64,000 nt of DNA from Anaerolineae bacterium (GTDB lineage: Bacteria > Chloroflexota > Anaerolineae > JACRMK01). How positions within the stretch are numbered: the first letter of the stretch is position 1; the number at the start of each line of letters is the position of its first letter. The translations under genes and the position numbers were made by a program. Positions 2,526 through 58,218 of this stretch are shown here, one piece after another. The stretch is from assembly GCA_038198935.1 (NCBI GenBank), contig JBBPZQ010000021.1, forward strand, positions 289 to 64,288. Reading direction: 5' to 3'. Below the pieces are notes generated by a model. It saw only the letters and a program-made list of their open reading frames with translations, did not search any database and was not told where the DNA came from.

Positions 2526-4225
2526 GGGTGCACATCCACTTTCGGCGAATAGCCTAATGCCTGCAAGCGTGTCTGCAATTCCTCAACCTGCTCGGGTGCG
2601 ACGAGCGCAACAGTGGGGGATAGTACTTCGCGGATGTACGTGCTCAGTTCAGGATGATGACGCAACTCGGTCAACAATTTCTGATCGCGCGTGTGCAGCA
2701 CGGCGGCGCGGCGCAGCGTGATCTCGCCGTACTTCTCGTACCACTCGCGCAGCGTAAACTCGACGTTCTTTGGGAACGGCGAGCGCGAGATGCGCCTCAG
2801 GAACTTGAGCAATTGGTCAATCGTGACATTGTGACGCAGCAAGCGCATCGCCGATTCGCGTGTGAGCCGGTACGTGCTGATGCGATCCCACTTCGTGCGC
2901 TCCGTCATCTTCTCCAACTGGAAGCGCGCGAACATAGGCGCATCAATCGGCACGAGCACCTCGAAGTCGCCTTGCACCACAAACTTTGCGGAGCGCGGCT
3001 CGGGCAAATCTTTGTCTGTCAGTCCGAGCGCACGCGCGCCGAACTCCGTGAGCTTGAACGCGCCCGCGCCGTCGTTGCTGCCGCTGCTCACCACGCCTTG
3101 CCACGTGAGTGGACCTTCGAGGATGAACTTGAGCAGCGCGCCTTCCACGTGGTTCCAGTTCGAGAAGCCTGTGAGCAGTCTGCCCGTCTCAGCATCGCGC
3201 AGATGCCAGCGGTCGTAGTCGCCGTCGGGCCGCTGGAAGTCGGGATCGAATTTCTTAATACCGCCGATGAACGAGGCGAGCGCAATCCATTCGTCGCACG
3301 GACACTGCGCCAGATACTTCAATACCGTCGCGCGCGCGAGTCGCGGGTCGTTGCGCCAACCGGTTTCTTCGAGCTTGAGCGTTGGTACGTAGCGCAATTC
3401 GTTCCACGTGCGCTCGCGTTTCCATGCCTCCAACAACTGCACGCGCCGGAGTTGATGCGTCGTACGCAGCCACGCCTTCGCCTCGCTGCCAAGCCGCACA
3501 CCGATCGCCGGAATCGCGCGAATCAGACGGGCCGTGCGCGCCACTCGCACCAGCATCGTCAAGCGCGGCGCGCTCGTGATGTCTTTGCCGACGAATGAAT
3601 CTTTGACCTGCACTTGCTCGTCGAGCGCGCGCAGATCGTCCACGCTCAGCAGTGTGCCTTCGGCGTACGGCGGCTGACGGCGTGCGACGTGCGAGAGCAG
3701 GATGAACGTGTCCCACATCAACTTGTCGCCGTGGGCGAGACCCACGCTCGGCGCAGCGACCGTCCGCACCGTGAAGCCGGCAGGTGCAGCAGGTTTGGGC
3801 AAGTGCGGAAGGATTTCATCGGGGATATAAAAAATTTCGCCGCGCACATCGCTCGCCATCTCGAACGCGCGCTGAATGAGGCCGAGATACCACAGCCGCT
3901 CGGTCGCGTTGGCGGGCGCAAGCCACGGCTTGTCACGCGCAAGCGCGACGGGACCAAATGCGCGAATCTCGCCGTTGTCGCGCACCATCTGAAATGCCTT
4001 CACGCGTCCGCCGCTGAGCACAACCTTGCTGAGTACGTCGCGCTCCGCATCGGTCAACGCTTGCCACGCGCGCTGCACGACTTCAGGACGCGCGAGTTCG
4101 TCGGCGAGCGTCATTGCCGACTGCTCGCGTGACCCGCCTTCGGGCAGCGCGATGTGATGGCCGTCTGCGATGGCGCGCAGCATTTGCGGCGAGTGATCGA
4201 GCAGCGCGTCCTTTAAGGTTTTCAT
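2522..4225 (-). CDS. stand-alone protein with an XPB/Ssl2 N-terminal-type helicase-associated (Helicase_C_3-like) domain
   Basis: 567-aa ORF. The C-terminal part (FVVQGDFEVLVP...YRLTRESAMRLLRHNVTIDQLLKFL...REWYEKYGEITL...LQALGY) matches my recollection of the damage-recognition-like domain found N-terminal to XPB helicases. No helicase motifs are present. The stop overlaps the galK start. Confidence 0.45.
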   Translation of the reverse strand: MKTLKDALLDHSPQMLRAIADGHHIALPEGGSREQSAMTLADELARPEVVQRAWQALTDAERDVLSKVVLSGGRVKAFQMVRDNGEIRAFGPVALARDKPWLAPANATERLWYLGLIQRAFEMASDVRGEIFYIPDEILPHLPKPAAPAGFTVRTVAAPSVGLAHGDKLMWDTFILLSHVARRQPPYAEGTLLSVDDLRALDEQVQVKDSFVGKDITSAPRLTMLVRVARTARLIRAIPAIGVRLGSEAKAWLRTTHQLRRVQLLEAWKRERTWNELRYVPTLKLEETGWRNDPRLARATVLKYLAQCPCDEWIALASFIGGIKKFDPDFQRPDGDYDRWHLRDAETGRLLTGFSNWNHVEGALLKFILEGPLTWQGVVSSGSNDGAGAFKLTEFGARALGLTDKDLPEPRSAKFVVQGDFEVLVPIDAPMFARFQLEKMTERTKWDRISTYRLTRESAMRLLRHNVTIDQLLKFLRRISRSPFPKNVEFTLREWYEKYGEITLRRAAVLHTRDQKLLTELRHHPELSTYIREVLSPTVALVAPEQVEELQTRLQALGYSPKVDVHP

Positions 4226-4313: not shown

Positions 4314-5027
4314 TTACAATTTCTCCGGCGTGTTCGTGCAAATCGCATCCACATCCAGCGTTCGCAGCACACGCAACTCGTCGTCGCGCTCCTCGTGCCA
4401 GAGCACGATGCCCAATCGCGCCGAGCGCAATGCACGCAGCAAGTCCGGTGTGAGCAGTTGATGCGGATGGGGCGCGCGGTTCTCCCAGCACAAGTGAATA
4501 AAATCCGCGTGCGCCTCGCGCGCGAGTTGCACGAGTTCGGTCGCCGCATACACGCGGCCCACAAGCAGCGACGTGGCTAACTCTGGTGCGCACTGCTTGG
4601 TCTCGCACACCAGTGCTGGATTGAACGAGCCGACGATCACCTGCCGCCGATCTGTGAATTGATTCGCACGCAAGCAGTCCACCGCTGCGCGCGGCGTGCC
4701 TTCGGCGATCAATTCGATGTACAAGCCGTTGCGTCCGCGCACAAGCTCAATCACTTCTGGCAATGTCGGCACGCGCTCGCCGTCGCCCGCATCGAGATGC
4801 TTCAGTTCGGCGAGCGTCAAATCCTTGATCGCGCCTTGCCCATTCGTGGTCTCGTCCACGCTGTCGTTGTGCATCACGATCAGCGCGCCGTCTTTGCTCA
4901 GATGCAAGTCGAGTTCGCTCATGTCCGCGCCGAGTTCGATTGCGCGCTCGAAGGCGCGCAGCGTGTTCTCTGGCGCGTGTGCCGACGCGCCGCGATGCGC
5001 GATATTCAAGTAATGTCGTTGGCTCAC
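4314..5027 (-). CDS. glycerophosphodiester phosphodiesterase
   Basis: GDPD motifs IAHRGASAHAPENTLRAFERAIELGADMSELDLHLSKDGALIVMHND. Start placed at GTG 5027, which forms a GTGA overlap with the upstream stop. The track ORF reaching 5156 overlaps the methyltransferase and is probably too long. Confidence 0.8.
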   Translation of the reverse strand: MSQRHYLNIAHRGASAHAPENTLRAFERAIELGADMSELDLHLSKDGALIVMHNDSVDETTNGQGAIKDLTLAELKHLDAGDGERVPTLPEVIELVRGRNGLYIELIAEGTPRAAVDCLRANQFTDRRQVIVGSFNPALVCETKQCAPELATSLLVGRVYAATELVQLAREAHADFIHLCWENRAPHPHQLLTPDLLRALRSARLGIVLWHEERDDELRVLRTLDVDAICTNTPEKL

Positions 5028-5548
5028 CAACTCACCGCCGAGTAGATTTCTTTCAAGAAACGGCTTGCCACACTCCAAAGCCACCGCGTGTTTGCAAAAC
5101 CGCAGCGCGCAGCGAGCGTCTGCCACGTCGCAAACGAGAGCGGATGTGGCACCCACAGGTTGCCCTGATCCACGTTGTACTCGACGAGGATCAATCGCCC
5201 ATCCGCGCGCACATAATTTTTCAGCAGTCTGATGACGGATTCTTTGTCGCGCTGAAAGTGGAGCGCGTTCGCCATCACGATACCGTCGAGCGATGGCAGG
5301 TCGAGCGGGCGTGTGAAGTCGGCGGCGTGATACTCGACGCGCGCCGACGGGAAGCGCGAGCGCATCACGCGCTCTTGCGCGCGCAGCGACTCGCGCTCTT
5401 GGTCAATCGAGATGATCTGCGCCTCATTGCCAAGCAACTCAGCCAGTGCCAACGTGAACGCGCCGCTGCCCGAACCGAAGTCCGCCCACACACCGTCGCG
5501 CGCATGAATGCCATCGCGCAATAGGCGAACGTGATCGTGGTGATCCAT
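5024..5548 (-). CDS. class I SAM-dependent methyltransferase
   Basis: 174-aa ORF with the SAM-binding motif I VWADFGSGSGAFTLALAELL. Confidence 0.75.
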   Translation of the reverse strand: MDHHDHVRLLRDGIHARDGVWADFGSGSGAFTLALAELLGNEAQIISIDQERESLRAQERVMRSRFPSARVEYHAADFTRPLDLPSLDGIVMANALHFQRDKESVIRLLKNYVRADGRLILVEYNVDQGNLWVPHPLSFATWQTLAARCGFANTRWLWSVASRFLKEIYSAVSW

Positions 5549-10508: not shown

Positions 10509-11327
10509 TTACGGTGCGACCTTAATCACCACCGTGAGTGGCTGGCCGAACAGCGTTCCGTTCGGCGCGCGCATCCGCCACTTGCCCATGTAGCTGCCAG
10601 CGTTGCGTGGCGCGATCAACGGCACCGTCACCTCGGCGTTCGCGCCCGGCGCAGTGCTCGGCACATTTACTACAGCCAAATCACCCATCTGCGCGCCCTC
10701 GATGAAGGTCGCCTGATAGCCCGCATCCCACGCGCAGTTGCCTCCGTTGCGCACACGCCACGTCTTGTTGATGGTTTCGCCCGCTTTGAACGTCGTGCCA
10801 TCGGGCACGCTCACGTCCGACACAAACACCGCGTCCAACTTGCACGACGCGGGCACGGTGCCGGTGGCGAACGCGGGTGCAACGAACGTCGGCGTGCCAC
10901 TCGGCGTCGAACTGTTCGTACCGATCACGCTGACGCGCACCGTCTGCGGTCCGCTCGCGTTGCCATCCACATTGATCGCTTTCACCATCAACACGTGCGC
11001 GCCCGCATCTTTCGCAACCCACGCTTGCGAAATGGTCGCGTCGCGCGGCGCATCCGTCTCCTTCGCCACGTCGGCGCGATACAGCGCGCCATCCACCCAC
11101 AACTCCACACGCAGCACGCCGCGCGCATCATGTGATGTGCTCTGCACCTGCACGGTCGCGCCCGCGATCACTTGCGCACCGTCGGCCGGCGCGCTGACGA
11201 GCAGCGTGGGACGACTGACCTGTGCCGTCGTGGTCGGCGCGCCCGTCGGCGGCGGCGTGGTCGCGCCACACGCCAACACCCACAGCGCAAGCATCAACAG
11301 TCCACACAATCGTACGCTAAATCTCAT
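10509..11327 (-). CDS. lipoprotein with Ig-like and NBR1-type (N_BRCA1_IG-like) domains
   Basis: Start at ATG 11327 with a GGAGAGGG RBS. Lipobox LWVLAC. C-terminus FVSDVSVPDGTTFKAGETINKTWRVRNGGNCAW...SYMGKWRMRAPNGTLFGQPLTVVIKV fits the NBR1-like Ig domain pattern. Confidence 0.7.
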   Translation of the reverse strand: MRFSVRLCGLLMLALWVLACGATTPPPTGAPTTTAQVSRPTLLVSAPADGAQVIAGATVQVQSTSHDARGVLRVELWVDGALYRADVAKETDAPRDATISQAWVAKDAGAHVLMVKAINVDGNASGPQTVRVSVIGTNSSTPSGTPTFVAPAFATGTVPASCKLDAVFVSDVSVPDGTTFKAGETINKTWRVRNGGNCAWDAGYQATFIEGAQMGDLAVVNVPSTAPGANAEVTVPLIAPRNAGSYMGKWRMRAPNGTLFGQPLTVVIKVAP

Positions 11328-46574: not shown

Positions 46575-47021
46575 TCAAAACGTGATGTCCAACTCTTTAG
46601 CCAGTCCGTCCAGATCAGGAAAAATGGTCGTGTGCGTAATGCCGAGCATCTTCAAATCGTCGAGGATGTTTTCGACTTCGCTGGTCGGAAAAATATATTT
46701 GCGGAAGAAGCCTTTCTGTACGAGCGGCGCGACCACGAATAACTCTTCAAAGTTTCGTGTGTCCTTGCCGTGAATGGTGAACGACGCTTTCTGCGCGCGC
46801 AGCCGCTCATGGACGTACGTCGGCTGGATGGCGATGGGTAAGTCGCCTGCGTGACCATCTTTGAACGCAAGCCCGACACGCTCCGCAAATTCTTTGTTAC
46901 TCGCGGCGGGAATGTGGCGCTTGCCGTTGGCGGTGCTGATGAATTGCTCGACGGAGTTCACGTGCTCGAACGGAAACTGATTTGGCATTTGTGCTCCATC
47001 AATTTCAACCGCAGAGGGCAC
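46575..47021 (-). CDS. hypothetical protein resembling the C-terminal half of FRG-domain proteins (possibly 5'-truncated)
   Basis: HERLRAQKASFTIHG and the C-terminal IFPDLDGLAKEL recall FRG family ends. The N-terminal FRG/QHYG.PT blocks are absent. GC is lower than the flanks by eye. Confidence 0.35.
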   Translation of the reverse strand: MPSAVEIDGAQMPNQFPFEHVNSVEQFISTANGKRHIPAASNKEFAERVGLAFKDGHAGDLPIAIQPTYVHERLRAQKASFTIHGKDTRNFEELFVVAPLVQKGFFRKYIFPTSEVENILDDLKMLGITHTTIFPDLDGLAKELDITF

Positions 47022-48604: not shown

Positions 48605-49039
48605 TCATTCTCCGAGTTGATCGCCGCGCGGGCGATGCCGACGCGCGACGCGCACACGCACTTCGGCGCGGCGCAGTGCGATTTCGAGTGCAGCCATCTG
48701 CGCCGCATCGGATGGCGGCGTCTCGCGCAAGACTTCTGCGGCGCGTTGGCGCGCTTCTTCGGCACGCGCGACGTCAATCTCGTCGGCGTGCTCGGCGGTA
48801 TCGGCGAGGATCGTTACTTTATCGGGGCGCACCTCCATGAAGCCGCCACCAATGGCGACCAACTGATCGGGCAAGCCGCGCTTTTTGATGCGCAACTCGC
48901 CCGGCTTCAAGCCGGTCATCAACGGCGCATGGTGCGGCAAGATGCCGAGCATACCTTCGGTGCCCGGCGCGACGACCATATCCACGTCGTCAGAATAGAC
49001 TTGGCGTTCGACGGTTACGATGTCTAATCGGATGGGCAT
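48605..49039 (-). CDS. atpC: F1 ATP synthase epsilon subunit
   Basis: MPIRLDIVTVERQVYSDDVDMVVAPGTEGMLGILPHHAPL. Start at ATG 49039; the track extension reads through the heptamer repeat. Confidence 0.9.
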   Translation of the reverse strand: MPIRLDIVTVERQVYSDDVDMVVAPGTEGMLGILPHHAPLMTGLKPGELRIKKRGLPDQLVAIGGGFMEVRPDKVTILADTAEHADEIDVARAEEARQRAAEVLRETPPSDAAQMAALEIALRRAEVRVRVARRHRPRGDQLGE

Positions 49040-49046
49040 AAGGCTT

Positions 49047-49109
49047 CGTGACGGCGGACGGTGGACGAGAGACGACTTGCTGCCGTCCACCGTCCGTCGT
49101 CCACCGTCG
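49047..49109. repeat. heptamer-built hairpin (NNNGACG x4 / NNCGTCC x4)
   Basis: cgtgacg gcggacg gtggacg agagacg acttgct gccgtcc accgtcc gtcgtcc accgtcg. It fills the atpD-atpC spacer. Confidence 0.92.
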
Positions 49110-49111
49110 CA

Positions 49112-50614
<1,503 letters not shown>

Positions 50615-51022
50615 TCACATCAATTTCAATTTTGTGGCGCGCGGATCAACGTGAATCTCGTCATGTTCAAAATCGAGCGTAATGCGCCACTTCTGCATTG
50701 TCGTTGCGCCGATGATGACTGCTTCCGACAAATTCGGCACAATCATGAATTCATCAGTAAGGCGGACTTCATTCAAGTAGAAATCAAGTGTAACGCGATG
50801 CGTAATTCGCACATAGTGTTCTTCATCAGCTGTTTCTAGGTTGATCGGTCTTGGAAGCGGCACGGGTTGGTCAAGCGGACTCACTTCACTCGGATGAATG
50901 CATGAGTACGTCGCGCCACTGTCGAACAACGCTTGCAACTGCGCCTCGCCCTTCGAGCCTTCAAACCGAAGCGTGCGTTCGAGAATCATCTGCTTTCGCT
51001 TGTCGTGCACACTGACACTCAT
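50615..51022 (-). CDS. retropepsin-like (clan AA) aspartic protease-like protein
   Basis: 135 aa. Active-site-type motif LFDSGATYSCI and a distal IIGATTMQKW flap/dimer block. Markedly lower GC than the atp genes by eye. Lies between atpG and atpD on the same strand. Confidence 0.65.
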   Translation of the reverse strand: MSVSVHDKRKQMILERTLRFEGSKGEAQLQALFDSGATYSCIHPSEVSPLDQPVPLPRPINLETADEEHYVRITHRVTLDFYLNEVRLTDEFMIVPNLSEAVIIGATTMQKWRITLDFEHDEIHVDPRATKLKLM

Positions 51023-51032
51023 ACATTTTTCG

Positions 51033-51920
51033 CTAACTTCTATCCCGACTTTGCTTCAGCGCTTCCACGCCGCCGGTGATGTCGAGCATCTCGCGCGTGA
51101 TGGCGGCTTGCCGTACAGTGTTCAATGTCAGCGTATAACTGCTCACCAGATCTTTCGCGTTGTTGGTCGCGTTGCGCATCGCCATCATGCGCGCACTGTG
51201 CTCGCTGGCGAGCGATTCGAGCAAGCCTTGATATAACTGCGACTCGATCAAGCGCGGCATTAATTCTTCGAGCAGCGTCTCTTCGTCAGGTTCGTAGATG
51301 TAACTCGGATAGAACGTCGCGCCCCCAGTCTCTTCCGGATTCACCGGCTGCACGGGCAAGATTTGCCGCACGACGGGCCGCTGCTGCGATGGGCTGATGA
51401 AGTCCGTATAGCCGAGATAGACCGAGTCGAATTCGTGTTTCAGAAAGGCATCAATCACTAAGCGCGAGATGGGCGTGACCTTCGACAGTGGTGGATTGTC
51501 GCCCAAGCGCGTGAACTCGGCGACGATGCCGCCGCCGTAGCGCGCGAAGAAGTCGCGTCCCTTGCGCCCGACCGTAATCAAACCGAGCGGCTTCGTTTGC
51601 TGGCGCTTAAAGTTGTTCGCCGCGCGAATGATGTTCGCCACCATGCCGCCCGCCAGACCTTTGTCCGGCGTGATGATGACGAAGCCGACGCGCTGCACCT
51701 CGCGCTGTTCGAGCAGCGAGTGCGGCGCGCGTCCTTTCTGTGCCTGCCGCGCGAGGAACGATGCGATCTCCCACGCCTTCGTCGCGAAGGGGCGCGTTGC
51801 CAGCACTTGCGCCTGCGCGCGGCGCATCTTCGACGCGGAGACCGCTTCCATCGCGCGGGTCACTTGCGAAATATTTTTGACGCTCTTGATGCGGCGTCTG
51901 AGTTCACGAGGAGTAGCCAT
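51033..51920 (-). CDS. atpG: F1 ATP synthase gamma subunit
   Basis: MATPRELRRRIKSVKNISQVTRAMEAVSASKMRRAQ and C-terminal ITREMLDITGG. Confidence 0.95.
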   Translation of the reverse strand: MATPRELRRRIKSVKNISQVTRAMEAVSASKMRRAQAQVLATRPFATKAWEIASFLARQAQKGRAPHSLLEQREVQRVGFVIITPDKGLAGGMVANIIRAANNFKRQQTKPLGLITVGRKGRDFFARYGGGIVAEFTRLGDNPPLSKVTPISRLVIDAFLKHEFDSVYLGYTDFISPSQQRPVVRQILPVQPVNPEETGGATFYPSYIYEPDEETLLEELMPRLIESQLYQGLLESLASEHSARMMAMRNATNNAKDLVSSYTLTLNTVRQAAITREMLDITGGVEALKQSRDRS

Positions 51921-51941
51921 AGTTCAATGCGTGAGTTGCAA

Positions 51942-52382
51942 TTACGCTTTACGGATTGCACGATTGACGCGCTTAACTTTGCTGACTGATTGATCGGGGT
52001 GGGCGGGATTGGGCATCAGGCGTTGACCGCGCGCATCCACAAATAGGTCGAGCTTTCCCAAAATCGTCTGTCCGATCAACACTTCGTCACCCAACACCAA
52101 TGCTTCGTCGTTCGTGTGTCTGCCCATGATTTCGATGCTCACAGGCTCAGTCACGCCCACCGTTTCGAAGCGACCATCTGCATATTGCGCGACCTCCTGA
52201 TGCGGTTGCGCTAATCCGAGTTGTTCGACCACTAATGCGGGCAGCACCAGCCGCACCGCGCCCGTATCCACCAATGCCATCACATCCATCGCGCGCAGTT
52301 TGTCGGGCGCGAGTTGGTCGCGTCGCGCCAACATTTCATCCAGCGCGCTAGCAATTTTGACTTTGACTCGCACTTCGCCCAT
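51942..52382 (-). CDS. retropepsin-like (clan AA, AF_0612-type) aspartic protease-like protein
   Basis: About 146 aa from ATG 52382 (GAGGAGG RBS). MALVDTGAVRLVLP and VLIGQTILGKLDLFVD. Lies between atpA and atpG on the same strand. Confidence 0.65.
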   Translation of the reverse strand: MGEVRVKVKIASALDEMLARRDQLAPDKLRAMDVMALVDTGAVRLVLPALVVEQLGLAQPHQEVAQYADGRFETVGVTEPVSIEIMGRHTNDEALVLGDEVLIGQTILGKLDLFVDARGQRLMPNPAHPDQSVSKVKRVNRAIRKA

Positions 52383-52486
52383 TGGCTCGTCCTCCTCTGT
52401 CTCTACGACGCGCCAGTTGGGTCGTGCTTTCGATTTTACCTTGATTTTTGAAACGTGAGCACTTTTCACTTGACACCTGACACGAC

Positions 52487-54004
<1,518 letters not shown>

Positions 54005-54014
54005 ATTTCTCCTC

Positions 54015-54077
54015 TTACGACGACAGACGGCAGACGGCGGACGGCGATTCGCGGTCTGCCGTCTGCCGTCGAGCGTC
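54015..54077. repeat. heptamer-built hairpin (NNNNGAC x4 / NNNNGTC x4)
   Basis: ttacgac gacagac ggcagac ggcggac ggcgatt cgcggtc tgccgtc tgccgtc gagcgtc. It fills the atpH-atpA spacer. Confidence 0.9.
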
Positions 54078-54510
54078 ATCTCGCGCCCAACAACATTTCC
54101 TGCATGGCGTTCAGTCGGCTGGCGAGCGAGCCGTCAATGATCTTGTCGCCGACCTTCGCCACGATACCGCCCAGCAGCGACGGATCGGTGCGATACTCGA
54201 ACGTGAGGTCGCGCCCGAACTTCGCGCCCAACTTCTGCTCGATGGCGCGCCGCTCATCGGGCGTGAGCGCAACCGCGCTCGTAATCTGCGCCATGCTTTG
54301 GTCGCCGCCGCGCAGCATCTCGTCGAGTTGACGCAGCACGTCGCGCTGCAAGTTCGGGTCATGCGTCGCCTGCAACTGCTTGACCGTCTCGTTGTAAATG
54401 GCGTGCGCGACACTCGCCGAATCATGCTGGCTCGTCGTGCCGCGCCCTTCGACCGGAGTTTGCGAGCGCATGGTATCCGCGTTGGGCGGTTGGACTGGCT
54501 GGCTCATCAT
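54076..54510 (-). CDS. atpH: F1 ATP synthase delta (OSCP) subunit, short form with an atypical N-terminus
   Basis: C-terminal OSCP block [53 protein letters not shown]. The N-terminal ~70 aa are not OSCP-like. Confidence 0.75.
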
Positions 54511-55001
54511 GCCCTCTCGACTTCGTTCAGGAACTGCTGCACGAGCGCGCGATGCTTCGCGTCGTCCACGCCGCCGTTCGCCAGCACCTTGCGCGTGATC
54601 GCGAGCGACAAGTCCGCCACATCGCGCTGCAACTGCACCATCGCCTGCTTGCGCTCATATTCGGCGTCGGATAATGCTTTTGCTTTGATCTGCGTCGCCT
54701 CTTCGTTCGCCTTGTTGATGATTTCCTGACGAACTTTTTCGGCTTGCGCTGTCGCGCTCGTGACGGCTTGCTGACGTTCGCGGCGCTCGGCTTCGAGTTG
54801 CTGCTCGAATTTTGCGCGCTCCGCCGCCGCATCCTCGCGCACCTTCTCTGCGTTGGCCAGCGCGTTGGCGATGTCCTGCTTGCGCTTGTCCATCATAGCC
54901 AACAGCGGCTTGTACGCATAGCGCTGCAAGACGAACAGCACCACTAAGAAACTGATCAGCTGTGTCAGCAGCCATGGCAGGCTGACGCCAAGTTTATCCA
55001 T
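54507..55001 (-). CDS. atpF: Fo ATP synthase subunit b
   Basis: One TM (LLTQLISFLVVLFVL) followed by a long charged helix. Start at ATG 55001 with a GGAGGG RBS. Confidence 0.88.
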   Translation of the reverse strand: MDKLGVSLPWLLTQLISFLVVLFVLQRYAYKPLLAMMDKRKQDIANALANAEKVREDAAAERAKFEQQLEAERRERQQAVTSATAQAEKVRQEIINKANEEATQIKAKALSDAEYERKQAMVQLQRDVADLSLAITRKVLANGGVDDAKHRALVQQFLNEVERA

Positions 55002-55030
55002 CGAATCCCTCCGAGAGTGACGAGTGATAG

Positions 55031-55118
55031 GGATACAGGTAGGCAGGTACACGGGCAGACAAGCACGGTCAGTTGATTACCTGTGTACCTGTCTAACCGT
55101 GCACCGCTGTACCGATAA
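55031..55118. repeat. imperfect inverted repeat in the atpE-atpF spacer (weak 7-nt periodicity)
   Basis: acaggtaggcaggtaca ... ttacctgtgtacctgt. Less regular than the other elements. Confidence 0.45.
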
Positions 55119-55120
55119 CG

Positions 55121-55458
<338 letters not shown>

Positions 55459-55463
55459 ATTCT

Positions 55464-56462
55464 TTAATGATGTTCTTCTGCCGTGTGCGGCGCCGTCGTC
55501 GCCTGCGTCATGAATACGAGCGTCAGCACCGCGAACACAAATGCTTGAATCGCGCCGACCATCAGTTCGAGAAAGTAGAACGGCAAGGGTAGCAGCGGGA
55601 ACAGCACGAACATGACGAGCAGCAGCACTTCGCCTGCAAAAATGTTGCCGAACAGACGGAAGCTCAGTGAGATCAGTTTGGACACTTCCGAGATCGCTTC
55701 GAGGACGCCGACCAGCAAATCCAGAATGCCGAATCCGATGTTGCCTTTGCGCAATTTGTCGAGCACGATGTATTTGCTCAGGAACGTCCGCACGCCGAGG
55801 CTGCGGATACCGTACGCCTGCGTCATCACCCACGAAATGATGGCGAACGCGAGCGGGGTGTTGAAGTCCGAGGTCGGCGCGCGGAAGAACGGGAAGAATT
55901 CTGCCTTGTGTGGCTCAGTCGTTTCCGTCGCGGGCGCAGTCTCCGTCCCGCACTTGGACGGCACATGCGCCTCACACGGCACGTCGAACGCTTTGGGCAA
56001 GTCGAACAAAGCTACGACGCCAGCGGGCGGAACCTCGCGCTCATTCTCGAAATGCACGACGCCGATCGGTCCGAAGCCCGGCACCAAGCCGAGCAAATTA
56101 GCGACCAAGATGTATAAGAGGAACGTCATCACGAACGGGAAGAACCAGCGCACCAATTTCTCGTTGCCACCCGTCGTTTGCCGCACGAGGTTGCTGATTG
56201 TTTCGATGGCGATCTCGAACAGATTCTGCAAGCCGCTCGGAATGAGTTGGGGGTTGCGTCCGACCGCGAACGCGGCCAGCATCAGCAGCAGCGCGACGAA
56301 CCAACCCACCAGAATGGAGTTCGAGACGGCATAGCTGCCGATCATGAATACCGGCTCGGCGACGACGGACGGGCCAATGCGATCGGCCGGCAATAGCAGC
56401 TTGATGGCAAAGCCGATCAGTAGAAAAATTAGGATGGTTCCCCAAAGTCTAGGGTTTCTCAC
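55464..56462 (-). CDS. atpB: Fo ATP synthase subunit a (with a ~60-aa insertion)
   Basis: LSFRLFGNIFAGEVLL with the essential Arg. 332 aa, which I judge longer than usual. Confidence 0.92.
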   Translation of the reverse strand: MRNPRLWGTILIFLLIGFAIKLLLPADRIGPSVVAEPVFMIGSYAVSNSILVGWFVALLLMLAAFAVGRNPQLIPSGLQNLFEIAIETISNLVRQTTGGNEKLVRWFFPFVMTFLLYILVANLLGLVPGFGPIGVVHFENEREVPPAGVVALFDLPKAFDVPCEAHVPSKCGTETAPATETTEPHKAEFFPFFRAPTSDFNTPLAFAIISWVMTQAYGIRSLGVRTFLSKYIVLDKLRKGNIGFGILDLLVGVLEAISEVSKLISLSFRLFGNIFAGEVLLLVMFVLFPLLPLPFYFLELMVGAIQAFVFAVLTLVFMTQATTAPHTAEEHH

Positions 56463-56692
56463 GACTTCCCTCCACCCAGTTGGGCGTATGCGTCTTTCAC
56501 GATGCGATACACGGCGAGCGAGCCAATCGTCAGACCAATCGCCACGACAATCACGATTGCAATCGGTCCTAACTTAAACGTGCTACTAATCCAAATGCCA
56601 ATCAACAATGGCACCACAATCGAAGTGACGATGGCGAAACTCAACTGCGCCAGAATGCCCGCGCTGACAATGGTCGGCGGCTTGTTGCTCAT
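56459..56692 (-). CDS. atpZ: AtpZ/AtpI family small membrane protein
   Basis: 77 aa, two TM helices. First gene of the atp operon; its stop overlaps the atpB start. Confidence 0.7.
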   Translation of the reverse strand: MSNKPPTIVSAGILAQLSFAIVTSIVVPLLIGIWISSTFKLGPIAIVIVVAIGLTIGSLAVYRIVKDAYAQLGGGKS

Positions 56693-56695
56693 AAC

Positions 56696-56748
56696 TTAGA
56701 CGGCGCACAGTGGACGACGGACGGTGGTCTGCCGTCTGCCGCCTGTGG
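56696..56748. repeat. heptamer-built hairpin (NNGGACG / GCCGTCT units)
   Basis: ttagacg gcgcaca gtggacg acggacg gtggtct gccgtct gccgcct. It fills the nuoN-atpZ spacer. Confidence 0.8.
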
Positions 56749-58218
56749 TCAACTCTTGAAGATTGCCTTGACCGATTCTTGGGCAAACGTGATGAACGGC
56801 TGCGGCACGATACCCATCAGCAGCGTCATCGCCGTCGCGAACGCGAGCGACACGTTCAGCGTCGGCGTAACGCGCACCGGCGTCATCTCTTTCGGCGGCA
56901 TGAAGAACATGTAGCGCACGATGTTGAAGTAGTAGCCGACCGAGACGACACTGTTGACGGCGCCGATGATGGCAAGCCAGATTAGCAGTTGACTAGGCCC
57001 GCCCGCCTTCGCCGCGTCGAGCGCCGCGCCGAACACCAGAAACTTGCCGATGAAGCCCGCCGTCGGCGGAATGCCGGCCAGCGACAGGAAGAAGATCACC
57101 ATCGCGAGCGCGAGCGCCGGCGCGCGGCGAACCATACCGGCATAGTCGGCAATCTCGTCCGAGTGGATCGCGTTCGAGTATGCGATGACCGCGATGAACA
57201 GGCCGAGGTTGGTGAAGATGTACGCGATCAGGTAAACCAAAATGCCGCGCAAGCCTTCACCCGTCGCGACGTTCGCGACGATGCCGATCAGCATATAGCC
57301 CGTCTGCGCGATGGACGAGTACGCGAGCAGGCGCTTGATGTTCGTCTGGCGCAGCGCGACCAGATTGCCAAGCGTCATGCTGATGGCGGCGATTGCCCAC
57401 AGCAGGTTCGTCCAGTCGGATGCAAAGTGCGGCAGTGCGGTAATCATCACGCGCGCGAGCACGGCGAAGCCGGCCACTTTTGGACCGACCGAGATGAATG
57501 CAGTTACGGGCGTCGGCGCGCCTTCGTATGCTTCAGGCGACCACTGATGGAACGGCGCGAGCGCAATCTTAAAACCGAAGCCGACGATGGTCAGGATGAT
57601 CGCGATGACTATCAAGTTGCTGGTGCCGGCAGGTGCGTTGGCGAACGCTGCCGCGATGCGCACGAGGTTCGTCTCGCCGTTGCTCGCGCCGTACAGCAGC
57701 GACATGCCGTACAGCATGATGGCTGACGCGACCGAGCCATACAAGAAATACTTGATCGAGCCTTCGGACGATTTCACGTCGTCGCGTAAGTAGCCGACCA
57801 TGATGTACGACGTGATGCTCAGGAACTCGAACGACAGGAAGATCATGATCAGGTCAATCGAGCCTGCGAGCAATATGATCGAAAGCGTGACGAACAGGAG
57901 CAGTGCGTAGAACTCGGCAACGTACTTCGTGCGCTGTTCGACGTACTCTTTGGACGCGAACACGATCAGCGCAGCGATAACGAGCGAGGCGATGCGAAAG
58001 AACGACAGGAACTCGTCCACCGTGTATGTGTTGCCGAACACATTCTGCCGCGCGTAGAAATACCACGCCGCGTCGGCGATGCCGAGCACGAGCGCGAGCA
58101 GCGTCAGCCATGGTGCCCACGTCCGCCCCGCGCGATCCGACACGAGGTCCACCGTTAGCACCAGCATTGCGGCGGCGGTCACGATGATTTCAGGACCGAG
58201 GAGGAGGAGTTGATCCAT
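56749..58218 (-). CDS. nuoN: NADH-quinone oxidoreductase subunit N
   Basis: MDQLLLLGPEIIVTAAAMLVLTVDL and the antiporter-like fold. Start at ATG 58218; the track extension (MAACNQPSNQQTNQRIL) is encoded by the heptamer hairpin. Confidence 0.9.
   Translation of the reverse strand: MDQLLLLGPEIIVTAAAMLVLTVDLVSDRAGRTWAPWLTLLALVLGIADAAWYFYARQNVFGNTYTVDEFLSFFRIASLVIAALIVFASKEYVEQRTKYVAEFYALLLFVTLSIILLAGSIDLIMIFLSFEFLSITSYIMVGYLRDDVKSSEGSIKYFLYGSVASAIMLYGMSLLYGASNGETNLVRIAAAFANAPAGTSNLIVIAIILTIVGFGFKIALAPFHQWSPEAYEGAPTPVTAFISVGPKVAGFAVLARVMITALPHFASDWTNLLWAIAAISMTLGNLVALRQTNIKRLLAYSSIAQTGYMLIGIVANVATGEGLRGILVYLIAYIFTNLGLFIAVIAYSNAIHSDEIADYAGMVRRAPALALAMVIFFLSLAGIPPTAGFIGKFLVFGAALDAAKAGGPSQLLIWLAIIGAVNSVVSVGYYFNIVRYMFFMPPKEMTPVRVTPTLNVSLAFATAMTLLMGIVPQPFITFAQESVKAIFKS

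Follow-up and report, generated by a model that had tools for sequence, protein, structure and literature searches.

Two retropepsin-like protease genes in the F1 spacers of an atp operon

Two genes for small retropepsin-like proteases are embedded in the atp operon of an Anaerolineae bacterium, on a 64,000-nucleotide stretch of DNA referred to here as the window (contig JBBPZQ010000021.1 of assembly GCA_038198935.1). The first gene, named X, is located between atpA and atpG, and the second, named Y, between atpG and atpD. In our preferred reading, in which we have moderate confidence, X and Y are independent nomadic accessory cassettes that belong to the same gene pool as toxin-antitoxin (TA) modules and are co-transcribed passively with their host operon. 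Their role would be in stress response, defence or self-maintenance, not in the ATP synthase; the hint is the company these genes keep, and it favours none of the three.

Few gene orders in bacteria are as conserved as that of the F1 genes in atp operons. According to the listing of open reading frames (ORFs), the minus strand of the window carries a complete F-type atp operon, with the order AtpI-like ORF-atpB-atpE-atpF-atpH-atpA-X-atpG-Y-atpD-atpC. A first-pass annotation, made from the letters of the window, had claimed that two retropepsin-like genes interrupt atpA-atpG-atpD, and the order, the strand, the quoted motifs and the two short gaps were all confirmed in the sequence. These inner gaps measure 21 nucleotides (nt) from the stop codon of X to the start of atpG and 10 nt from the stop codon of atpG to the start of Y, while the outer gaps are about 104 nt (atpA to X) and about 90 nt (Y to atpD). 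Each slot holds the protease ORF alone, with no mobility genes. When all four spacers around X and Y were scanned on the coding strand, no terminator-like hairpin followed by a T-run was found, so that co-transcription of X and Y with the F1 genes, also expected at first pass, would be the default reading. A lone promoter-like site, close to where Y ends at its 3' side, is no more than what is expected by chance.

Related operons were retrieved by exact-protein look-ups and by a metagenome scan with AtpG; individual loci are given below as L followed by a number. Locus L005, from a Chloroflexi metagenome-assembled genome (MAG) whose atpA and atpG are 96% identical to those of the window, has X in the matching slot, with a protein that is only 67% identical. 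In L004, a Y gene (81% identical) is present between atpG and atpD. L001 (atpG 79% identical) contains X, while its Y slot is filled by a DUF4160 gene together with a DUF2442 gene that is interrupted by a stop codon. The operon of L093 (atpG 89% and atpD 96% identical) is intact and lacks both X and Y, the two spacers being 50 and 48 nt long. About 40 nt of its 48-nt atpG-atpD spacer can be aligned to the final codons and the stop codon of Y. This relic points to a Y gene in the common ancestor with L093 that was later deleted in the L093 lineage. The 'empty' atpA-atpG spacer of L093 (approximately positions 277–329) consists nearly entirely of one hairpin with a perfect 15-bp stem, GGAAGGTGCAAGCTG-caacg-CAGCTTGCACCTTCC.

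Further related operons (atpG 48–74% identical) contain different cargo in the same two spacers. The atpG-atpD slot of L095 holds a RelB-YafQ toxin-antitoxin pair, that of L096 a Uma2 endonuclease gene and a gene for a 996-amino acid protein, and that of L094 genes for proteins of 442 and 555 amino acids, the atpA-atpG slot of L094 being empty. A Uma2 remnant is also part of the cargo of L095. A gene for a 460-amino acid protein is cargo in L102, L115 and L117, and the atpA-atpG slot of L102 contains one or more ORFs other than X. The atpA-atpG slot of L096 (positions 3409–3934) contains two overlapping ORFs for 87 and 117 amino acids without a Pfam match, which may be an unrecognised two-gene module. 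The atpG-atpD spacer of L113 (approximately positions 4913–5077) is taken up by a tandem repeat with a 15-nt unit, translating as MFSVQCSVFSVQC... In more distant atp operons (mostly around 40% AtpG identity), the gaps are mostly 0–20 nt. Among close relatives, conserved flanks therefore enclose variable cargo or none, as is the case for a slot, and both F1 spacers in this lineage appear to gain and lose small accessory genes.

Predicted structure of the X and Y proteins

The X and Y proteins contain 146 and 135 amino acids, respectively, and each has the size of a single retropepsin monomer, as noted at first pass. X contains the motifs LVDTGAV and LIGQTILGKLDLFVD, with the catalytic DTGA plus IGQT, and at its carboxy-terminus a PNPAHPDQ motif that is invariant in the family. 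The motifs of Y are FDSGAT, which contains the catalytic DSGA, and IIGATTMQKW. In alignments of the two families, the catalytic aspartate is invariant, as Asp39 of X in 24 sequences and as Asp34 of Y in 17.

Profile searches support the retropepsin fold that had been proposed. X scores above the Pfam cut-offs for PF13975 (gag-asp_proteas; 28.7 bits, cut-off 28.2) and PF13650 (Asp_protease_2; 26.8 bits, cut-off 24.3), and Y above that for PF00077 (RVP; 23.9 bits, cut-off 20.7). The cut-off of 57.35 bits of the NCBIfam entry TIGR03698 (clan_AA_DTGF) is reached by neither X (52.4 bits) nor Y (15.4 bits), and X may best be described as a near relative of this family that falls outside its membership by the NCBI threshold. 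A profile of the Y family matches PDB chains of ASPRV1 ('Retroviral-like aspartic protease 1') with an E-value of 3.5e-10, and the sequence match of X to Ddi1 is weak. AlphaFold models were built from the family alignments and their folds compared with the PDB by Foldseek. The models have confidence scores (pLDDT) of 85.5 for X and 87.3 for Y. The top match of X is HIV-1 protease, with an E-value of 4e-6 and a target TM-score of 0.72, and the top matches of Y are the RVP domain of Ddi1 or the XMRV protease, with an E-value of 3.5e-5. X and Y are predicted from these results to be clan AA retropepsin-like proteins with a single-lobe beta-barrel fold, presumably active as dimers to which each subunit contributes one catalytic aspartate. 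A hydrophobic amino-terminus is absent from both sequences, and X and Y should therefore be cytoplasmic. The two proteins are related to each other only at the level of the fold (HHalign probability 91%, sequence identity 19%), in line with the distant relationship suggested at first pass.

Translation starts, selection and composition

X has a Shine-Dalgarno sequence, GGAGGA, 8 nt 5' of its ATG. Y has no strong Shine-Dalgarno sequence and starts 10 nt past the atpG stop codon, which makes translational coupling to atpG likely. Upstream of the X start, the reading frame remains open for 29 codons from a GTG at position 52469, MKSAHVSKIKVKSKARPNWRVVETEEDEP. The X gene of L005 has an in-frame extension of equal length (approximately positions 1357–1443), in which PNWRV is kept through synonymous differences, while the rest of the family begins at MGEVRV. 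The true start of X appears uncertain because of this matching extension.

The ratio of non-synonymous to synonymous substitution rates (dN/dS) is about 0.1 for X (window versus L005) and about 0.05 for Y (window versus L004), similar to the values for the atp genes, and around 65% of the X positions are near-invariant across phyla. Both are functional genes under purifying selection. At third codon positions, the GC content (GC3) of Y is 0.559 and that of X 0.619, compared with 0.72–0.83 for all atp genes and a window mean of 0.737 (standard deviation 0.061); X and Y lie 1.9 and 2.9 standard deviations below this mean. The AT-richness seen in Y at first pass is therefore real and extends to X. 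The codon signature of both genes is that of foreign-looking or weakly expressed genes, and a foreign-looking composition is in line with the acquisition suggested for Y at the same time.

Occurrence of the X and Y families in other genomes

The X family has more than 4,400 database relatives. A pattern-based scan of 185,579 species genomes, one per GTDB species, located X at 324 loci in more than ten phyla, with 55–68% identity to the protein of the window; the best 80 of these 324 loci were returned for inspection. The hosts include Acidobacteriota, Rokubacteria/Methylomirabilota, Planctomycetota, Verrucomicrobiota, Cyanobacteria and Firmicutes, as well as Bipolaricaulota, Thermotogae, KSB1, Ignavibacteria and Thiotrichaceae. 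Neighbouring genes were called with a simple longest-ORF gene caller, and tight same-strand neighbours of X were annotated with Pfam. The loci are mostly from MAGs or metagenome contigs, and the key arrangements recur in independent assemblies.

When the nearest neighbours of at least 100 amino acids at the best 80 of the 324 loci were clustered, nearly all were singletons, with the exception of one group. None of these 80 loci is in an atp operon, and a recurrent small partner ORF beside X was not found at 94 loci. X is present as sdhC-X-sdhA in at least 13 genomes of the Pyrinomonadales/Blastocatellia. Its other contexts include nuoG-X-nuoH, hisC-X-hisB, X-hypD, xdhC-X, ispG-X and sufB-X; X is also located after a molybdopterin oxidoreductase gene and between the genes for an acyl-CoA dehydrogenase and an alcohol dehydrogenase. 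A third retropepsin-like gene (L008/L009, positions 10541–10984), encoding 147 amino acids with matches to PF13650 and PF13975 and unrelated to X and Y by BLAST, is found 4 kb from the sdh-embedded X in one genome of the Pyrinomonadaceae, so some genomes hold several paralogues.

In Synechocystis, relatives of X with 32–38% identity are encoded inside the type III-B cmr operon of plasmids, among them pSYSA. At L177 (pSYSA 83501–83881) and L178, the clan AA protease gene is positioned between cmr3 and cmr4 on the opposite strand. In Synechocystis PCC 7338, a Uma2 gene is also part of this operon, located between cas10 and cmr3.

The Y family is smaller, with 543 database relatives. Besides the window, seven further independent contexts of Y were examined, none of them in an atp operon. 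Y is found as porA-Y-porB, after uvrB and after gyrB, and as sufD-Y-sufS in two kinds of suf operon that have Phd-YoeB or PemK modules between the suf genes. In Desulfomonile, it lies inside a TA island together with HEPN/MNT, HigB, DUF2442, MNT/HepT and PemK genes. The tilS gene is also among the contexts of these families. The suf operons of L173 (positions 2103–2605), L175 (positions 4381–5239) and L048 (Blastocatellia) have many inserts between their genes: Phd-YoeB, a ribbon-helix-helix-like ORF with PemK, DUF3817, a YjgF-family gene, and copies of X and Y.

X and Y are near each other in three unrelated lineages, or three of the eight independent Y contexts, even though X is rare overall. 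These are the atp operon of the window, the Blastocatellia-type suf operons of L175 and L048 (sufB-X ... sufD-Y), and L012, a Sumerlaeota MAG with the tandem X-Y-Y. Such proximity may result from shared permissive hosts, from co-transfer or from a real partnership.

Mobility of the genes

The youngest pair of copies in differing contexts is formed by L017 and L018 (Peptococcaceae/Desulfotomaculum, Firmicutes), which are 93% identical over 444 nt. Their homology runs from 13 nt before the ATG, including the Shine-Dalgarno sequence, to about 20 nt past the stop codon, and their flanks are unrelated. With homology ending this near the edges of the ORF, the transferred unit would be essentially the bare gene. 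Copies from Rokubacteria in differing contexts have, in addition, a common leader of about 85 nt, and many X copies are preceded by -10-like boxes, candidate promoters of the X gene itself.

A comparison of the window with L005 shows that nucleotide identity falls from about 0.90 to about 0.70 and rises again to 0.91, with the steps exactly at the edges of X. The synonymous divergence (pS) is 0.70 in X and 0.35–0.40 in the flanks. Both observations fit allele exchange by recombination in the conserved flanks, and they also fit a codon-usage constraint on highly expressed atp genes.

Several observations weigh against X and Y being mobile cassettes, or set limits to their mobility. The raised synonymous divergence of X could reflect nothing other than the codon-usage constraint just mentioned. 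At most divergences, homology restricted to the ORF is what purifying selection and neutral decay of the flanks would be expected to leave. The sdh-embedded X tracks SdhA in a roughly vertical manner (X 75–93% and SdhA 84–98% identical, rho 0.38), and a weak clade unites the three X copies located in atp operons, which also speaks against repeated independent insertion of X there. Given this vertical tracking and this clade, movement of X and Y appears to be real but rare, and their long retention suggests host benefit or addiction. By crude gene calls, X is tightly placed between two same-strand genes at 22 of 69 loci, a share that does not clearly exceed that of an average gene. We do not claim a statistical preference of X for operons; what is unusual is its presence in spacers between subunit genes of fixed order. 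Neither direct or inverted repeats nor target-site duplications bracket X or Y, and recombinase genes are absent. No relatives of X or Y were found among the viral sequences of IMG/VR or the phages of INPHARED, and plasmid carriage was found only for X, in the form of the 32–38% identical Synechocystis relatives. Searched against the defence systems of PADLOC, Y has no match and X only one, below significance, to PDC-M52B, with an E-value of 0.0017 and 16 bits over 38 residues.

Organisation of the operon and neighbouring features

The coordinates of the operon genes, the inserts and the spacers concerned are listed in Table 1.

Table 1. Features of the atp operon and its two inserted genes, in window coordinates
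Feature	Position	Strand	Basis
atpI-like ORF	56459–56692	-	ORF listing
atpB	55464–56462	-	ORF listing
atpE	55121–55441	-	ORF listing
atpF	54507–55052	-	ORF listing
atpH	54076–54510	-	ORF listing
atpA (F1 alpha), upstream flank of the X slot	ORF 52487–54079, likely start 54004	-	96.5% amino acid identity to L005
Possible 29-codon amino-terminal extension of X, otherwise atpA-X leader	52383–52469	-	Reading frame, comparison with L005
X, putative stand-alone clan AA retropepsin-like protease (146 amino acids)	51942–52382	-	Motif, profile, fold
atpG (F1 gamma), between both inserts	51033–51920	-	ORF listing, relatives
Y, putative stand-alone retropepsin-like protease (135 amino acids)	50615–51022	-	Motif, profile, fold
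Y-atpD spacer, about 90 nt, ending in the atpD Shine-Dalgarno sequence GAGGAGG	50525–50614	-	Sequence reading
atpD (F1 beta), downstream flank of the Y slot	49112–~50524	-	ORF listing
atpC	48605–49090	-	ORF listing

Most of the operon spacers that do not adjoin X or Y hold a hairpin. A family of palindromic repeats resembling repetitive extragenic palindromic (REP) elements, GACGGCAGACGGCGGACGG...CCGTCTGCCGTC, is present in three spacers: at 49049–49106 (atpD/atpC), at 54018–54077 (atpH/atpA) and at 56698–56755, upstream of the AtpI-like gene. Further strong hairpins are located at 55035–55100 (atpE/atpF) and 55412–55456 (atpB/atpE), the arms of the first being 75% complementary over 28 nt and those of the second 90% over 21 nt. 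Searched against Rfam at E<=1, the spacers gave only sub-threshold hairpin matches to miRNA models, at the REP-like palindromes elsewhere in the operon. Outside the operon, an ORF for 148 amino acids without a Pfam match (46575–47021, minus strand), flanked by a Fumble/BadF-type kinase gene and by mreB, is positioned in a low-GC patch (0.52–0.55) and may likewise be a small gene that was acquired.

Interpretation and alternatives

As nomadic cassettes, X and Y would each encode a cytoplasmic stand-alone retropepsin-like protease, predicted to be a dimer, and would be lodged in the two F1 spacers and carried by atp transcription. Translation of Y would probably depend on coupling to atpG, and that of X on the Shine-Dalgarno sequence in front of it. 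The cassettes would come from the floating pool that also contains TA modules, Uma2 endonucleases and DUF4160/DUF2442 pairs, the members of which occupy core-operon spacers in this Chloroflexi lineage, in some Acidobacteriota and in other phyla. Entry or exchange would take place by recombination; an inserted cassette would then be retained over long periods, subject to purifying selection, and could later be deleted. The first-pass suggestion of selfish or addiction-type inserts stands in part. It is supported by presence and absence among relatives, by TA genes in the same slots and by the occurrence of the families in many operons and TA islands. A classical addiction pair, on the other hand, finds no support, as an antitoxin-like partner was not found: no small ORF recurs beside X at the 94 loci inspected, and the neighbours of X and Y in the window are atp genes.

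Conserved positions together with long persistence in the absence of a partner mean that some selective force maintains the X copies, be it host benefit or self-addiction. The second of these would be embodied by a single-gene addiction system or toxin, a self-restrained protease (for instance one autoinhibited by its own amino- or carboxy-terminal segment) whose loss or deregulation would harm the cell, which would account for long retention even if the host gains nothing. X and Y do keep company with classical TA modules and persist under purifying selection without a partner gene. The invariant PNPAHPDQ tail of X, its lineage-specific amino-terminal extension and the possible promoters upstream of many copies would also suit such a gene. 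Clean loss has nevertheless occurred in L093, and an antitoxin-like ORF or RNA was looked for and none detected; we regard this explanation as unlikely.

Similarly doubtful is a joint action of X and Y, for example as the two halves of a heterodimeric retropepsin or as protease and regulator, in which case they would be one two-gene system split by atpG. The proximity of the two genes in three of eight Y contexts, in spite of the rarity of X, is what recommends it. However, Y was found within 5 kb at only one of the best 80 of the 324 X loci, no X is present within 4–8 kb in five of the eight Y contexts, and the L001 operon has X without Y. Both proteins also have a complete catalytic motif, as homodimers would, and shared permissive hosts and hot spots could explain the proximity. 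A broader form of this idea, that the X and Y families are a new class of single-gene nomadic elements of core-operon spacers (atp, sdh, nuo, suf, por, his, hyp and even cmr), at times next to TA modules, with a functional X-Y pairing, as heteromeric protease or as protease and modulator, whose activity in addiction, stress response or defence explains their retention, likewise seems improbable to us.

X and Y could instead be ordinary housekeeping or stress proteases of benefit to the host, whose position drifts by rearrangement and which have no selfish or mobile character. The very strong conservation of X, its roughly vertical co-inheritance with sdh in Acidobacteriota and the absence of mobility signatures argue for this. 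The distribution is very patchy for a housekeeping gene, however, with 324 matches in 185,579 species genomes, and there is presence and absence among close relatives as well as an atypical composition. The L017/L018 pair, 93% identical with unrelated flanks, and the insertion between subunit genes of operons of otherwise fixed order are also difficult to accommodate, and we judge simple housekeeping proteases to be distinctly unlikely.

Very unlikely, in our opinion, is a dedicated function of X and Y in the ATP synthase, for which they would have been recruited to obtain stoichiometric co-expression and would act in assembly, processing or regulation of F1, although this had been one of the proposals made at first pass. 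They share strand and tight spacing with atpG, the arrangement is kept in several related assemblies under purifying selection, and many of the other contexts, too, are operons for enzymes of energy or redox metabolism (sdh, nuo, suf, por, hyp). Yet a close relative, L093, has an intact operon without either gene and with a deletion relic of Y, and the Y slot is filled by other genes in L001 (DUF4160/DUF2442) and L095 (RelB-YafQ). Nearly all family members are located outside atp operons, with none in an atp operon among the best 80 of the 324 X loci and with contexts that include his, tilS, uvrB, gyrB and a TA island. Finally, the idea that the two ORFs are spacers without coding function or pseudogenes in decay, for which only their small size and lack of an annotated function speak, has a negligible chance of being correct in view of their low dN/dS values (0.05–0.1), their confident fold predictions and their full-length homologues, which number in the hundreds to thousands and in which the catalytic motifs are invariant.

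The families of X and Y interrupt atp, sdh, nuo, suf, por and his operons, which suggests that core operons can be long-term harbours for accessory genes. An extensive uncharacterised branch of prokaryotic retropepsin-like proteins hereby gains a testable genomic lifestyle, that of travelling with TA genes. For annotation, the finding is a warning that operon membership is an unsafe basis for assigning function in these lineages. Should a partnership of X with Y, or a self-maintenance mechanism, be borne out, a protease-based type would be added to the small selfish and defence modules.

Comparison with known systems

X and Y share their monomer size, the D-T/S-G-A motif, the predicted fold and the lack of a signal peptide with the stand-alone prokaryotic clan AA proteases of TIGR03698, gag-asp_proteas, Asp_protease_2 and RVP, and their homologues in databases already carry the name 'clan AA aspartic protease' or that of 'retropepsin-like aspartic protease'. 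The characterised bacterial enzymes named in the literature retrieved have features that are absent from X and Y: RloA is secreted or periplasmic, and RimB is partnered with RimK. The retropepsin-like enzyme APRc of Rickettsia is membrane-anchored, unlike X and Y. No function was found described for members of the X or Y sub-families in the literature retrieved. The literature searched, on retropepsins or aspartic proteases in connection with atp operons, TA modules or operon insertion, yielded no description of retropepsin-like genes within core operons, atp operons included, or in association with TA genes, and nothing that documents the arrangement as common; nor was a role for such proteins in ATP synthase operons found there, as had been stated at first pass.

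The slots behave like minimal mobile elements, which are known from Neisseria (Saunders & Snyder 2002; Snyder et al. 2007, as presented in PMC3787668). In both cases, close relatives have differing cassettes, or none, between conserved flanks, and the cargo is free of transposase, integrase and other mobility genes. TA-like and restriction-like cargo is another shared feature. The atp slots differ in being inside an essential operon, between subunit genes, so that their cargo would be co-transcribed. Exchange by transformation and flank homology would also have to be assumed in our case, where the hosts are uncultured Chloroflexota.

Chromosomal type II TA modules resemble X and Y in their neighbourhoods and, among relatives, in the very slots they occupy, as well as in small size, patchy spread across phyla and atypical composition; RelB-YafQ, Phd-YoeB, PemK, HigB and HEPN/MNT all share such neighbourhoods or slots. 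X and Y are, in contrast, single genes without a conserved partner, and each encodes a predicted protease instead of an RNase or kinase. Free-standing homing endonuclease genes of phages are also single small genes, variably present in the intergenic spaces between conserved genes. X and Y differ from them in having a predicted retropepsin fold and no nuclease domain, and were not found in the phage collections searched.

Small stand-alone retropepsin-like genes within another kind of multi-gene operon are known from CRISPR-Cas loci. The 'Asp_prot' proteins of Sulfolobales are small retropepsin-domain proteins encoded beside type III CRISPR-Cas loci (PMC3973734), and the cmr protease of Synechocystis pSYSA is comparable to them and to X and Y in this respect. 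The cmr operon of Synechocystis PCC 7338 even combines a retropepsin-like gene with a Uma2 gene, the same guild as in the atp slots. The Synechocystis proteases are, however, only 32–38% identical to X and are encoded on the strand opposite to the cmr genes, and in the window neither X nor Y is flanked by cas genes. Conserved slots that carry accessory cassettes, and clan AA proteases encoded as single genes, were both known before the present arrangement was found.

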